DNA from: a virus
Direction: 5' to 3' (one strand)
Length of the DNA: 64,000 nucleotides
IMG/VR virus record: IMGVR_UViG_3300020411_000003
The position numbers and the translations under genes were made by a program. The notes beneath the pieces were generated by a model that was given only the letters and a program-made list of their open reading frames with translations, made no database searches and was not told the DNA's origin. How positions within the stretch are numbered: position 1 is the stretch's first letter; the number at the start of each line of letters is the position of its first letter. This document shows positions 3,001 through 10,961 of this stretch, in pieces.

Positions 3001-6000
3001 AACCAACATTAATTGTAAATGTATCAGTGGTTGCTGATAGAATAGGAACCCATCTGTTGCTTAGTGAATCAAAGTTAGTACGTGGATATGTTTTCTGACT
3101 TACATTACCATCAAGATCACATGTCAATGTAATAGAGTTATCTGCTACCTGAATGTAATCTCCTGGTGAGAATCCATGACTAGCAACAGTAACAACCATA
3201 GCACCAGTTGAAGGTGTGTAGTCAACATTAGTTGCTGTATGTTGTGTAGAACCAACTGCTGTAACAGCGATTGACTTACCAGCAAAAGGATCAGTACCAG
3301 GACGAGGATATGAATGCTGAGTAGCACCACCATCCTTATCACAAGTAAATGCTAATGAGTTATCTTTTAATACAATGTCAGTACCAACACGTAATCCATG
3401 TTGACCAACAGTAAGAACCATGTCACCATTGTTCTCATTATATGTTGCACCAGTAGGAGTTAGGAACTTATTAGAACCAGCAGCACCTACATTAAGTGTA
3501 AACTTACCTGTATCAATTGCTGTAATTGGAAGAGATCTTCCAGAAGCTTTATCTAAGTTTGCACGTGGATATGACTGAGCAACTTGGTTGCCATCCATTG
3601 TACATGTAAATGATAGAGCACCGTCATCCATGACGATTCCATCACCAACAGATAAATTATGAGGACCAACAGTAAGTTCTAAGTCACCTGTTGCAGGATC
3701 ATAAGAAGCATTAGTTGGAGTAAATTCTACGTTAGAACCAGCATCTGCAATCTGAACTTTGAATGTATTTTGTGCTACATCATAAACAGGTAACCAATCA
3801 CCAGAATAAGGATCAGTTGCACGTGGATACTTATGCTCGGAAGCATTGTTATCCATACCACATGTGAATGTCAAAGATTCCTTAGCAATCTTAATAAGTT
3901 CACCATTTGCTATTCCATGATTAGGAACAGTAAATTCAAGTACACCTGTAGATGGATTATAGTTAGCGTTAGAGATATCAAAGTCACCACCAACACCAAT
4001 AACTTCTAGTCCAGTATTATATGCAGGATCAGTTACACGAGGATAAGTATGGTTAGAACTATTTCCATCCATACCACATGTAAATGTTAATGCATCAGTA
4101 GCAAATCTGATATTCTCACCAACATCAATGTCATGATTTCCATCAACACTAACTGTTAACTGACCACTTGCAGGATCATAGTTAGCATTAGTAATATCAT
4201 ATGTTACTGCACCAGTAGTTCCAACATGTGCTTCAAAAGTATTATTGGTTGTGTTTGTAATAGTAACCCACTTACCACTGATAGGATCACTCTTACGTGG
4301 ATATGAATGCTCAGTAGCATTAGCATCCATTGCACAAGTAAAGATTAGAGAATCATCATCAAGTCTAATCTTATCTCCATCAGAGAATCCATGATTAGCA
4401 AGAGTAAATTCTATTGTACCTTTGTCAGGATTATATCCAGCACCAGTAACTGTATGCTTAGAACCATCTGCTACAATCTTAACAGAACTTTGATATGCTG
4501 GATCAGTAGAACGAGGATATACATGCTGTGTAGCATGATTATCTTGAGCACATGTAAATGTAAATGCAGAGTCTTCAACTCTTACATTCTGACCTTCACT
4601 TAACTGATGGTTTGGAATAGTTACAGTCAACAAACCAGTAGCAGGAGCAAATGAAGCAGCAGTTACATCATGTCCAACTAATAAAGACTTACCTACATCA
4701 ACACTGAATGTATTTGTATCTGCCTCAACAACCTCAATCCACTTATCACTAATAGGATCTGTAGAACGTGGGTATGTATGAACAGAAGCATTTCCATCCA
4801 TTGAACATGTCAATGTTAATGAATCATCTTCAATCTTAATCTTACTACCAGCAGCTAAACCATGAGCATTAGATGTAATAGTTAACCAACCAGTTTCAGG
4901 ATTATAAGTTGCATCTGAAGCAGTGATTGAAGTAGGACCAATTAGACCATGACTAGCAATGTCAAGAGTCAAATCACCTGTTGCTGGATCATACTCAGCA
5001 TCAGATGGTGTATACTCAGCAGTAGAAGAACGAATCAACATTCTCTCTACAGATTCAGCAGCAATCAGTTGCTTGTTAGCAAGAATCAAATTACGTGCAT
5101 CACCATTTCTGTCATTAACCACTTCAGGTGGTTCATAAGTGACAGTATTATCATATGTTTGAGTTAGACCATGACTACCAAACACAAATGCTTGCTCGTT
5201 ACGCATGATCTGGATAGACATATCCCTTGCATATTCAATAGCACGGATAGTCTCATTTTTCTTCTGTGAAATATACTGAACTGCACCACTATCATAGTGA
5301 TAAGCAGCATCCCATACTTCATCGTTACCACCATAAGCAGTGTTCTCAGCAATTGCTTCAACGATGTCAACTAAGTCATCTCTACAATCCTGTGGACCAT
5401 ATCCTTGAGGTGAAGTGTAGGATGGATAATCCAACACCATTCTGTCAAATGCTTCAGCAGCAATGAATAATTTGTTTGAAAGTAATAGGTTTCTAGCATC
5501 ACCATTACGATCAGAGATTACCTTCTTCGTAGAGAAAGTTGCTTTTTGTCCAAGTTCGATCTCTGTTGATGAGACAACTCTCTTAACGTATGTGTTATCT
5601 GGAATAACAGGAGATGCAGGACGTGTAGCACCAGTATTAAGTTTATTATCTGTAAACTCACTAGGATCATAGTCAGCAACTGTCATACCCTGTACAACAC
5701 CACTGGTATCACCAATATCAACAATGGCAGATCCACCAGTAGTTTCTACACCAGTACGTAAGTATGAGAAATTACGTATAGATGCAATAGCAAGATCTCT
5801 AGCGTAGTCGTAACCCTCTAGAGTTTCAGTAAGTTCTGATGTAATATATGATAAGTTATTACCAACATAATATGATTCAGCAGCCTGAATAGTATTAATG
5901 TTACCACCAAGTCTTAAATCTTGAATAGTAGCATCAAGTAGATATCCAATGTCACGACGACACTTAACAATATCAATACCTTCTCTGTCTAAGAGGTATG

Positions 6001-8063: not shown

Positions 8064-8135
8064 CAAGAAAATCCTTGATTTCGCTTAGGTTCTAGAGAAA
8101 TTACATCGATGTGATTTTAACCCAGTTCGAAAAAG

Positions 8136-8209
8136 TAGGAGTGGTGGGATTCGAACCCACACTGGAAAGATTTTAAGTCTTCTATCTCTGCCGATTGGAT
8201 TACACTCCC
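8136..8209 (-). tRNA. tRNA-Leu(UAA), short variable loop
   Basis: Acceptor GGGAGTG/CACTCCT, anticodon loop CT-TAA-AA, T-arm GTGGG TTCGAAT CCCAC, discriminator A, no encoded CCA. Confidence 0.88.
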
Positions 8210-8212
8210 AAA

Positions 8213-8286
8213 CGACTCAGGTAGGATTCGAACCTACGACCGACTGCTTAGAAGGCAGTTGCTCTTGTCCACTGAGCTACTGAGTC
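8213..8286 (-). tRNA. tRNA-Arg(UCU)
   Basis: GACTCAG/CTGAGTC acceptor, ACTGC CT-TCT-AA GCAGT anticodon arm, canonical T-arm. Confidence 0.95.
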
Positions 8287-8288
8287 AA

Positions 8289-8361
8289 TAGGGGTTACGG
8301 GGATCGAACCCGTCTCCTATCAATTATGAGTTGATTGCATTCACCAGATTGCTAAACCCCT
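8289..8361 (-). tRNA. tRNA with CAU anticodon (elongator Met or Ile2)
   Basis: AGGGGTT/AACCCCT acceptor, ATCAA CT-CAT-AA TTGAT. It has no initiator features; Met versus Ile2 cannot be decided by eye. Confidence 0.85.
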
Positions 8362-8708
8362 GGTATTAAAACTAAATCTGGTAATTCCCTTAAACCTGCA
8401 TGAACTAATCTATGACAATTAGCACATAATGGAACACACTTGTCAACCTCCTCTTTCAGTGATGCGTACGGACCTGTTCTGACTAAACCTGTTATACTTA
8501 CTGTTTTTTCTGAATTGTCTGCATGATGGAGATCCATCACACATACAGGGTATTGTATATTGCAGATGACACAAGGATTTGACTTGGCATCATCTACCAA
8601 TTTCTGCCTATTTTTCGGACCTCTTTGATTTGCTCGTTTGGTTTTACCATTTTTACGAGCCCATTCTCTTTGGTACTCTCTATTCTTCTGTTTGTCCTTT
8701 ATTGGCAT
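8352..8708 (-). CDS. HNH endonuclease (putative free-standing homing endonuclease)
   Basis: CxxC...DLHH...CVPLCANCHRLVH motif with a basic N-terminus. Confidence 0.88.
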   Translation of the reverse strand: MPIKDKQKNREYQREWARKNGKTKRANQRGPKNRQKLVDDAKSNPCVICNIQYPVCVMDLHHADNSEKTVSITGLVRTGPYASLKEEVDKCVPLCANCHRLVHAGLRELPDLVLIPGV

Positions 8709-8823
8709 GTAATTTGTCTAATGCTTTCTTTACTTCAGGAGTCTCTTCCCATTCCCATATATTAGTATGCTTAGGGTTCTTTTTTTCTTGCTTGAAGGTT
8801 TTTTTCACAGTTCTTAATTTCAT
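8680..8823 (-). CDS. Small basic hypothetical protein (47 aa)
   Basis: Read by hand: MKLRTVKKTFKQEKKNPKHTNMWEWEETPEVKKALDKLHANKGQTEE. The start overlaps the upstream stop. Confidence 0.6.
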   Translation of the reverse strand: MKLRTVKKTFKQEKKNPKHTNIWEWEETPEVKKALDKLHANKGQTEE

Positions 8824-9368
8824 TGTTTCTCGAAGAAGTTAAAGTTTACCACACACTTGAACCGATTGTCAAGTTGACTCACACCTCTATGTTTTAAATT
8901 TGCTGGAAATTTTACTAGACGATTAGCAACTGCTTCTGTTACTGTACCATCCTCAAACTCAGTAAATCCATCACATGTGTTAACATAATATATGGCGGTT
9001 GTCATTGTGTTGCTTGGAATTGGGTTTCCATTTTCCATTTCTGCCCAATCATAATGAAAATCACTATAAAATCTCTTACTTTTTAGTGGTTCTAGATTTG
9101 CTTTAACTTTATGTAATGCAATAAAGTCTAGTCTATTCACTAAAGGTAATATAGATTGAAAATCTGGAGATATTTCATATCTAAAATTGCCACCGAATGC
9201 TTCTTGAAAATAAAATGGGTGAGTAAACTGATAATTGTCAATATCCTGTTCATTTGGACCACATGTAACTTTATGTTGCTGATATGTCCATAAGAGAACT
9301 CCTCCCATGAAATATTGTTCAAGATGTACGAATTCTTCTTGTGGTAAAAAATTATCTAATATTTCCAT
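8820..9368 (-). CDS. 2OG-Fe(II) oxygenase
   Basis: FHYD (HxD) ... LKHRG ... RFKCVVNFN motifs. Start refined to ATG 9368 because the track start lies within a hairpin. Confidence 0.85.
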   Translation of the reverse strand: MEILDNFLPQEEFVHLEQYFMGGVLLWTYQQHKVTCGPNEQDIDNYQFTHPFYFQEAFGGNFRYEISPDFQSILPLVNRLDFIALHKVKANLEPLKSKRFYSDFHYDWAEMENGNPIPSNTMTTAIYYVNTCDGFTEFEDGTVTEAVANRLVKFPANLKHRGVSQLDNRFKCVVNFNFFEKQ

Positions 9369-9376
9369 TGTATGAA

Positions 9377-9393
9377 GGGGGTATTCCACCCCC
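9377..9393 (-). terminator. Hairpin at the 3' end of the tmRNA coding piece
   Basis: GGGGGT-GGAAT-ACCCCC; the U-tail is weak. Confidence 0.5.
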
Positions 9394-9394
9394 G

Positions 9395-9667
9395 ATAGGT
9401 TATTTGGGTTAGAAGGCTAACCTAACCCCCATCTCACCTTATGGTCTAAACAGCCACGAGGTCACGAGTTGCAACCTTGCTGAATGGACGTGAGAATGCT
9501 ACGATGTTATTCGCAGCAGGTGTATCTGTTTTAGCAGATGTTGTTTGCTTATCCAAGCAGGTTTCAGTCCCGATCCTTATACCCTGTCGAAGCCATGGCA
9601 TCCCCTCGAATGGAGATGACGGGAATCGAACCCGTGTCCAGAATGTAGGTGTCGTCACCTATTCCCC
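9395..9667 (-). ncRNA. ssrA: Circularly permuted (two-piece) tmRNA, marine cyanobacterial type
   Basis: The 3' T-arm/acceptor part (GGACACGGGTTCGATTCCCGTCATCTCCA, ending 9611) precedes a 5-nt spacer and the 5' part GGGGATGCCATGGCTTCGAC (from 9605). The acceptor stem has G3:U70 and A73. The tag frame 9514-9446 reads ANNIVAFSRPFSKVATRDLVAV*, resembling the marine cyanobacterial ANxIVxFSR tag. Confidence 0.88.
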
Positions 9668-9677
9668 AGAAGGGGAA

Positions 9678-9749
9678 AGCCAACAGTCGGATTTGAACCA
9701 ACGACCTTCGCTTTACAAAAGCGTTGCTCTACCACTGAGCTATGCTGGC
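9678..9749 (-). tRNA. tRNA-Thr(UGU)
   Basis: GCCAGCA/TGTTGGC acceptor, ACGCT TT-TGT-AA AGCGA, canonical D and T arms. Confidence 0.95.
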
Positions 9750-10171
9750 AGTTTATCGAATTTAAAGTGACCCCATTGAGAACCCCAAGTGTCACCTAAG
9801 TCTAGCACATGATAGATCTCATCGGTGAGGATTGCATCAATACTGTAATGTACGTTATCATCTGATTTACCATGCCAATGATCGTCTTGCCACTCGAATA
9901 TTGTATCACGTCCTTCCAGATATGTCCAACCTGAAGAGTCAAAATTTTGTACGAGAAATTTTTCCCCAATCGGGGTAACACGCATCCGAAATTCCCTGTA
10001 TGGTTTAGGGTTGTGGTGGTATGCTTGAAACCCTTTGATCCAACCATCACCAACTTCCTCATGACATATGAGGATCCTAGCAAACCTACTCGGATATTGC
10101 AAGGCTTGTTTATGATTGTCAAATTTTCCAATTAAACATTCACGAAAAGGTTTCATCAGGTAAACTTCCAA
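9740..10171 (-). CDS. cpeT: CpeT/CpcT-family (T-type) phycobilin lyase, copy 2
   Basis: GKFDNHKQA..YPSRFARI...QAY..NPKPYRE...DxGxxWGS motif pattern. Confidence 0.75.
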   Translation of the reverse strand: MEVYLMKPFRECLIGKFDNHKQALQYPSRFARILICHEEVGDGWIKGFQAYHHNPKPYREFRMRVTPIGEKFLVQNFDSSGWTYLEGRDTIFEWQDDHWHGKSDDNVHYSIDAILTDEIYHVLDLGDTWGSQWGHFKFDKLPA

Positions 10172-10451
10172 CTAAAGGTACTTCAAATAGGAGAGGGTGC
10201 ATCTCTTCCTCCATCAAATAACTAGAGACCTTTTCAACTTGTTCTAGTGTAAATTCTGGGTTGACTGCTGCTTCACCTCGAACCCATACATCTTCTAACT
10301 CTTCTTTATCCAAAGAGTCAAATGTAAAGGGCATTTTGTTGATAAACCACATTCTCACAATGGATGAGTGGTTATCATCAAAGTAACAATACACGTATTT
10401 CGACGACAATTTGTATCCTTTGAACGCCATGATAAAACAATCTTCATACAA
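10140..10451 (-). CDS. Conserved cyanophage hypothetical protein
   Basis: Acidic 103-aa ORF tightly packed between the two cpeT genes. Confidence 0.65.
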   Translation of the reverse strand: MYEDCFIMAFKGYKLSSKYVYCYFDDNHSSIVRMWFINKMPFTFDSLDKEELEDVWVRGEAAVNPEFTLEQVEKVSSYLMEEEMHPLLFEVPLVGSLPDETFS

Positions 10452-10455
10452 CTAT

Positions 10456-10908
10456 TTATCCAACTTTATCAAATTTGTAGACTACATCACTGCCCCAGAC
10501 TACTTTGTCATCTTTCCATCCTTGATCTCTGCTCTTATAGTATACACCATTAAACTTGACTAATGACACCACTTTACCACCGTTAACAATGCATTTATCT
10601 GTCTTAACCTGTCCAGAGTAGTAGTCCTCAATCTTATTGAATATCATATCACAACACTCGTTATGATCTGACCAATCAGGCAACCAGTTTTCAACTAGAA
10701 TAGTACCTTCTTGCTGAAATACCTTATGCCACTTATGTCTGTATGCTTTCTCCTCACCGAGATATTCATACCACTGCTTAGATTCAAATTCATGATCACC
10801 GATACGTTCCCAACGCAATTTGACGTGAGACCACACAGCAGGATTTCTGCATGCCTGATTCCAGTTATCATAGAATCCTTCTAATTTATCGCAAAATTCT
10901 TCTAACAT
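10456..10908 (-). CDS. cpeT: CpeT/CpcT-family phycobilin lyase, copy 1
   Basis: GFYDNWNQACRNPAVWSHV...QWYEY...AYR...C...DQG...VWGS. Start refined to 10908. Confidence 0.8.
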   Translation of the reverse strand: MLEEFCDKLEGFYDNWNQACRNPAVWSHVKLRWERIGDHEFESKQWYEYLGEEKAYRHKWHKVFQQEGTILVENWLPDWSDHNECCDMIFNKIEDYYSGQVKTDKCIVNGGKVVSLVKFNGVYYKSRDQGWKDDKVVWGSDVVYKFDKVG

Positions 10909-10933
10909 AAAAAAAGGAGGGGTTTCCCCCTCC
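10909..10933 (-). terminator. Rho-independent terminator
   Basis: GGAGGGGG-AAA-CCCCTCC followed by T7, downstream of the OMP-like gene. Confidence 0.8.
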
Positions 10934-10961
10934 ATTATAGCATATTCTATTGACTAGTCAA

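Follow-up and report, generated by a model that had tools for sequence, protein, structure and literature searches.

Bacterial protein-coding sequences (CDSs) that run into a downstream tRNA or transfer-messenger RNA (tmRNA) gene, together t(m)RNA genes, have been proposed to give rise to non-stop mRNAs when the t(m)RNA matures (Hudson et al., 2014; PMC4131195). The published cases include smpB-ssrA of Carsonella and examples from Helicobacter, and such upstream-CDS overlaps number 250 per 115,660 t(m)RNA genes (PMC4131195). In phages, SegB of T4 is a GIY-YIG homing endonuclease whose gene belongs to the tRNA gene cluster (PMC2330249); flanked by tRNA-Ile and tRNA-Arg, this gene stops 5 nt short of tRNA-Arg (T4 map; PMC2330249). 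Phage-encoded tmRNAs have been listed for the mycobacteriophage Bxz1 group and Bacillus phage G (PMC4131195). In this work, we analyzed the IMG/VR virus record IMGVR_UViG_3300020411_000003, a stretch of 64,000 nucleotides (the window), in which cpeT, a gene for a CpeT-like bilin lyase, and an HNH endonuclease gene each end inside the tRNA gene that follows, with a phage tmRNA gene between the two junctions. We found that the two junctions share one geometry, that the cpeT overlap is conserved among relatives and the HNH overlap variable, and that the overlap is independent of a phage ssrA (tmRNA) gene. The two shared stop codons are probably a structural by-product, or a tolerated side effect, of gene packing and homing-endonuclease insertion, and not a dedicated circuit.

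In both genes the stop codon is the U8-A9-G10 triplet of the following tRNA (Table 1). An earlier note on this DNA had described this geometry, and ARAGORN, the open reading frame (ORF) coordinates, and the sequence agree on it for both junctions. The 5' end of tRNA-CAU reads AGGGGTT-TAG-CAATC and that of tRNA-Thr GCCAGCA-TAG-CTCAG, and each ORF draws its final two to three codons from the 5' acceptor strand of the tRNA: the HNH codons CCA-GGG-GTT with the stop TAG overlap positions 1-10 of tRNA-CAU, and the cpeT codons cTG-CCA-GCA with the stop TAG cover positions 1-10 of tRNA-Thr. RNase P cuts at tRNA position -1/+1, and both stops lie 3' of this site, so that an ORF co-transcribed with its tRNA would be separated from its stop. 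No terminator was predicted between CDS and tRNA, and there is no room for one. A look-up of RNA sequencing runs returned none containing positions 8100-10200 of the window. The two junctions share these sequence features with the bacterial overlap class: a same-strand upstream CDS, a valid tRNA, an overlap, and a stop past the cleavage site (PMC4131195). The reasoning of the earlier note that RNase P would remove the stops is sound if ORF and tRNA are co-transcribed, and the same argument has been published for bacteria, in which a same-strand CDS stop likewise lies inside a valid t(m)RNA gene and maturation should leave a non-stop message (PMC4131195).

It is hardly credible that the overlaps are annotation artefacts, with one or both ORFs unexpressed or the tRNAs pseudogenes and nothing being cut. 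The point in favor of an artefact is that Pfam alone misses the HNH ORF: the HNH domain was not recognized, and only a weak zinc-ribbon match was found. Against it, both ORFs recur in many contigs with 76-94% identity and have PHROG matches (phrog_3106 for the HNH ORF, E 1e-26), and both tRNAs have intact cloverleaves with compensated stems, tRNA-CAU matching the Rfam tRNA model over its full length. The CpeT identity is carried by a PF06206 match of 27 bits (cut-off 21) that covers the N-terminal half only, a full-length phrog_488 match, and a match to PDB 5HI8 (E 8e-7) that extends to the FxFxK end motif.

How often would an ORF that abuts a tRNA end in this way? A stop triplet occupies positions 8-10 in 129/191 (68%) of the distinct tRNA 5' halves from related phage loci (TAG 117, TAA 7, and TGA 5), which bears out the caveat in the earlier note that U8-A9-G10 is near-universal. 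In the other two frames, approximately half of the tRNAs have no stop within 39 nt. An ORF entering in the position-8 frame therefore stops there, and the other frames are often open, so position 8 is the shortest possible end for an abutting ORF. Among 90 distinct CDS-to-tRNA junctions whose frame is open for 80 codons or more, 48 end within the tRNA and 35 at position 8, such that two of two in one window is unremarkable in this phage family. This rate is far above the bacterial one given above. As a separate point, we rejected a preference for the position-8 frame beyond chance: outside cpeT and the HNH gene, position 8 holds four of nine in-tRNA stops, as expected if one frame in three leads there and long tails are selected against. 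A non-cyanophage control had own stops in 5/5 junctions, a sample too small to use.

The cpeT junction was compared across 80 IMG/VR loci and four isolates. In T4-like cyanophages the cpeT stop lies inside the following tRNA in 34/38 distinct junctions: at position 8 in 26, at position 21 in three, at position 36 in three (UAA formed by the last anticodon base plus A37-A38), at position 5 in one, and at position 4 in one (TGA, in S-PM2). The junction is homologous throughout, with an FxFx[KR] end motif, then "at", then G1 of the tRNA, and small indels account for three of the variants: a 1-nt insertion for position 4, a small deletion for position 21, and a D-loop deletion for position 36. All three entry frames occur. 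The tail of CpeT is [M/L/S]-P-x-stop, in which C2-C3 supply P and the variable acceptor stem supplies x; the tail residues track the acceptor-stem sequence and are not conserved. The same geometry is found before tRNA-Thr(UGU), Thr(AGU), Asp, and Ile(GAU), and all cpeT homologues without a downstream tRNA have ordinary stops. In PDB 5HI8, the solved structure of a phage CpeT, the chain ends two residues past the end motif, so the tRNA starts where the CpeT fold ends.

In this arrangement, cpeT abuts tRNA-Thr without a spacer, the folded domain ending at FxFx[KR] and the remainder being tRNA positions 1-10. These patterns suggest that the junction is old and has passed by descent to most T4-like cyanophages (Kyanoviridae). 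Constraints on both sides make it difficult to undo: G1 serves as the last base of the Met/Leu codon, C2-C3-N4 form the Pro codon, and the K/R before them is a conserved residue. Point mutations can hardly separate the two genes, and persistence therefore needs no benefit. In the bacterial overlaps, as here, most cases stem from a few evolutionary events inherited within a clade (PMC4131195). Unlike the rare bacterial overlaps, those of the cyanophages are the norm for cpeT throughout a phage family and recur at a mobile HNH gene, and unlike the published bacterial cases they involve no feedback loop on a trans-translation factor.

The HNH junction is more variable. We compared 16 junctions, i.e., the window and 15 relatives at 80-94% identity. 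In 16/16 the HNH gene lies directly 5' of tRNA-CAU, Leu, Ile, or Thr, of a tmRNA, or of a decayed tRNA remnant in which a 5' acceptor strand and TAG are fused to a GGTTCAAATC T-arm. The gene has its own stop in 9/16 junctions (3-9 nt before the tRNA or within the remnant), shares the stop of an intact tRNA in 5/16, and shares that of a tmRNA in 2/16. In one relative (L030), it lies between tRNA-Leu and tRNA-Thr, where Synechococcus phage Sf-FS3 has a 4-nt spacer, i.e., an allele without the gene. Judged from these sequences, the HNH gene behaves as a free-standing homing-endonuclease gene with a putative cleavage activity. It would have settled in spacers of a few bases directly 5' of tRNA and tmRNA genes, and depending on the junction its end would be the UAG or UAA of the tRNA, a fossil of it, or its own stop; landing in so short a spacer leads to a shared stop. 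As with SegB, the HNH gene is free-standing, is wedged between tRNA genes, ends a few bases from the next tRNA, and varies in presence and position among relatives. Unlike SegB, it belongs to the HNH and not the GIY-YIG family, and in 7/16 junctions it borrows its stop across a negative spacer.

Several details of the HNH junctions were also observed. The HNH gene with a decayed tRNA occurs in L027:4340-4400 (from G001, an IMG/VR genome of 202.5 kb and the closest complete relative of the window), L019, L020, and L021, where the tRNA-CAU/Arg/Leu cluster of the window is missing; the sequences point to repeated deletions at the HNH/tRNA boundary. In L022:4349-4354 and L024:1431-1436, the HNH stop is the TGA in the GGTGAC that opens a tmRNA helix strand, and the nuclease gene ends inside the tmRNA. 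The acceptor stem of the window tRNA-CAU is unusual in its A1-U72 pair (AGGGGTT/AACCCCT); the CAU tRNAs of all related phages have GCT... stems. The 5' strand of this stem is similar to CCAGGAGTT-TAG, the HNH tail found in close relatives that have no tRNA-CAU after the gene.

Some observations weigh against a by-product of packing and insertion. In other gene families of the same phages, the CDS ends at a stop of its own and is separated from the tRNA by up to 57 nt in 35/44 CDS-to-tRNA junctions, so tight packing is not universal, and the cpeT overlap stands out from the rest (34/4 vs. 14/39, p = 1e-9, with counts that are not phylogenetically independent). The cpeT overlap was also kept while CpeT diverged to approximately 30% identity and through tRNA replacements. 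In addition, every one of the 16 HNH junctions belongs to a tRNA/tmRNA cluster, several with a tmRNA call nearby. Selection could also explain the persistence of the cpeT overlap.

One form of selection would be a coupling device that needs no phage tmRNA: reading an ORF to its end and maturing the downstream tRNA (and tmRNA precursor) would be mutually exclusive, and RNase P would act as a decay switch that limits CpeT and the HNH nuclease. This is possible but unlikely. The excess of the cpeT overlap over other families fits it, and so do the survival of the geometry through tRNA swaps to Asp, Ile, and Thr(AGU), the persistence of the deep overlaps (to positions 21 and 36) in whole clades, and the sharing of HNH stops with four types of tRNA and with tmRNA. 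What speaks against it is that cpeT has an ordinary stop wherever no tRNA, or a tmRNA, lies downstream, that the HNH gene works with its own stop in more than half of its junctions (9/16), that each of the three frames of entry is in use, and that the tail residues of CpeT are unconstrained; a junction that mutation can hardly separate would persist anyway. A more elaborate version is improbable, in which selection keeps the zero-spacer cpeT/tRNA-Thr junction (and the HNH/tRNA ones) as an RNA-processing switch: as RNase P matures tRNA-Thr and the tmRNA precursor next to it, the message upstream becomes non-stop, less CpeT and nuclease are made the more tRNA and tmRNA mature, and where the phage has a tmRNA, a phage-specific tag gives the products a different fate.

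The earlier note had tied the junctions to the phage tmRNA, whose presence in the same cluster we confirmed. The window tmRNA matches the complete cyano_tmRNA model RF01851 (134.8 bits, gathering threshold 70; E 8.5e-38; model positions 1-288 of 288) as well as RF04321 (76.1 bits), and ARAGORN calls it as tmRNA*. It is permuted, the acceptor piece preceding the coding piece, and its tag begins with ANNIV. Like those of the Bxz1 group and phage G, it is an ssrA without smpB among tRNA genes; unlike them, it is of the permuted two-piece cyanobacterial type.

The arfA mRNA of Escherichia coli is a non-stop message cleaved by RNase III and repressed by tmRNA. In analogy to it, the earlier note proposed a programmed circuit in which tRNA maturation yields non-stop HNH and cpeT mRNAs and the phage tmRNA tags their products for degradation. 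The geometry on which this relies is real, a functional-looking tmRNA lies between the two junctions, cpeT, tRNA-Thr, and tmRNA are contiguous in several clades, and some HNH relatives end inside the tmRNA gene. The link to the phage tmRNA is nevertheless unsupported. The complete genomes of S-PM2 and Sf-FR1 have the cpeT overlap yet no match to RF01851, and in S-CAM1, which has the overlap, the tmRNA is ~160 kb away. Overlap and tmRNA in the locus are not associated (13/2 vs. 21/2, Fisher p = 1.0). The candidate case of a cpeT stop inside a directly following tmRNA was rejected, since in these loci (L083-L086 and L094) cpeT has its own TGA ~40 nt before the GGUGAC helix strand of the tmRNA. 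Furthermore, the host has its own tmRNA, which makes a phage copy unnecessary for tagging, and no SmpB is encoded in the three complete phage genomes searched. Conservation of the overlap, which had been put forward as a check, is lacking for the HNH gene and holds for cpeT, but independently of ssrA. As for control of the arfA type, both systems would obtain a trans-translation substrate from endonuclease cleavage ahead of the stop. Unlike arfA, in which the stop-less state is a conserved functional design, homologues with ordinary stops are common here (the HNH gene in 9/16 junctions, and cpeT without a downstream tRNA or before a tmRNA), and no rescue-factor function is involved. A dedicated circuit of this kind is therefore very improbable.

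With the shared stops taken as a by-product of packing and insertion, the following course of events may be proposed. A matured cpeT-tRNA or HNH-tRNA co-transcript would lose the upstream stop, ribosomes would run to the new 3' end, and tmRNA of the host or the phage, together with host SmpB, would rescue them. Conversely, termination at positions 8-10 would require the ribosome to unfold the acceptor and D arms, such that a single transcript could act either as an intact message or as the precursor of a tRNA, not both. The non-stop products would be a tolerated cost. A similar layout is the tRNA punctuation of animal mitochondria, where no spacer separates mRNAs from tRNAs, and excision of the tRNA sets the mRNA 3' end and removes or truncates the stop; unlike in the cyanophages, the mitochondrial stop is completed by polyadenylation. 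We know of no polyadenylation-type stop repair in cyanobacteria, and ribosome rescue is the expected fate. The phage tmRNA sits in the tRNA cluster like any other tRNA-like gene, and most likely it boosts general ribosome rescue during infection, using host SmpB.

The window comes from a T4-like cyanomyovirus (Kyanoviridae), and its best DNA matches are Synechococcus phages Sf-FS3, S-PM2, S-CAM1, and S-CAM4. All genes of the locus are on the minus strand, and Table 1 lists them in their order on that strand; a tail-fibre-like gene follows the last tRNA.

Table 1. Features of the cpeT-HNH locus in the window, listed in minus-strand order.
Feature	Coordinates	Strand	Evidence
Upstream CpeT-like paralogue, probable start ATG 10909	10459-10935	-	ORF list, PHROG match (phrog_488)
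103-aa phrog_4134 ORF	10140-10451	-	ORF list, PHROG match
cpeT, CpeT-like bilin lyase, 138 aa	9740..10156	-	ORF list, PF06206, phrog_488, PDB 5HI8
Shared TAG: cpeT stop = U8-A9-G10 of tRNA-Thr	9740..9742	-	Sequence and coordinates
tRNA-Thr (UGU)	9678..9749	-	ARAGORN; same tRNA downstream of cpeT in relatives
Permuted two-piece tmRNA gene, directly after tRNA-Thr	9378..9694	-	RF01851, RF04321, ARAGORN tmRNA*
tmRNA tag frame, ANNIVAFSRPFSKVATRDLVAV + stop	9446..9514	-	Sequence, Rfam consensus tag alignment, ARAGORN
189-aa ORF (phrog_274), probable ATG near 9368, starts directly after last tmRNA hairpin	8820..9389	-	ORF list, PHROG match
47-aa ORF (phrog_558), overlaps HNH gene start	8680..8823	-	ORF list, PHROG match
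Free-standing HNH endonuclease gene, 118 aa	8352..8708	-	ORF list, phrog_3106
Shared TAG: HNH stop = U8-A9-G10 of tRNA-CAU	8352..8354	-	Sequence and coordinates
tRNA-CAU (Met or Ile2 type), intact cloverleaf	8289..8361	-	ARAGORN, Rfam 58.1 bits
tRNA-Arg(UCU)	8212-8287	-	ARAGORN and Rfam
Short-arm tRNA, UAA anticodon, end of cluster	8135-8209	-	ARAGORN and Rfam

The two CpeT-like paralogues, both phrog_488, stand in an operon-like row (10459-10935 and 9743-10156), and the upstream paralogue and the phrog_4134 ORF likely share one transcription unit with cpeT. In one relative (L071), the upstream paralogue too ends in a tRNA, its TGA being positions 8-10 of a tRNA-Leu. A near-consensus extended -10 promoter-like site (TTGACT-16-TATAAT) is located just before the first CpeT-like gene (10961-10934, minus strand) and is directly followed by a GC-rich hairpin with a T-run (10933-10916, minus strand). 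A promoter scan found 11 sigma-70-like sites compared with 10.8 expected from shuffles, and is uninformative on separate tRNA promoters. The UAA tRNA at the end of the cluster has a short variable arm and a length of 75 nt; in relatives, this short-arm type adjoins a normal long-arm tRNA-Leu(UAA) of 85-87 nt.

Several observations concern the phage tmRNAs themselves. ARAGORN called a permuted tmRNA in 52/139 sequences, which comprise the loci of relatives and the window, several being from the same contig. Full-length cyano_tmRNAs that are unannotated in GenBank were found in S-CAM1 (L139; KU686192, 182352-182620; 128 bits) and Sf-FS3 (L001/L056; PV340856, 20809-21098; 143 bits), and in S-CAM1 the "hypothetical protein" N330309_215 is annotated over the tmRNA. 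In L073:3506-3880 (IMGVR_UViG_3300017742_000990), a tRNA-Tyr(GUA) (3591-3673) lies between the acceptor and coding pieces of a permuted tmRNA, which appears in the Rfam alignment as an 87-nt insert where the model has 10. The same arrangement occurs in L072 and L074-L082, and excision of this tRNA-Tyr would release both tmRNA pieces. The phage tmRNA tags share ANNIVAFSR and differ in length and end (...STVAA, ...QAAAVA, ...TRELATA/V, ...PVSPVRTRELALA, and ...PFSKVATRDLVAV); these varied ends suggest a diversification of the degradation signal.

For annotation, these results imply that gene callers forbidding CDS/tRNA overlap will truncate or miss such genes, and phage tmRNAs are currently unannotated or hidden under spurious "hypothetical protein" calls. 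The cpeT/tRNA overlap is visible in existing GenBank feature tables, and a search of the literature, whose incomplete coverage makes it no proof of absence, returned nothing specific on cyanophage tmRNA or on this overlap. Cultured phages offer the relevant contrasts, with S-PM2 and Sf-FR1 having the overlap without a tmRNA and S-CAM1 having both. The attractive idea of a circuit thereby becomes testable, while the arrangement is probably an ordinary feature. For cpeT of marine T4-like cyanophages, a stop codon inside a tRNA would be an inherited trait, and for the HNH gene a side effect of the landing site of a mobile nuclease.

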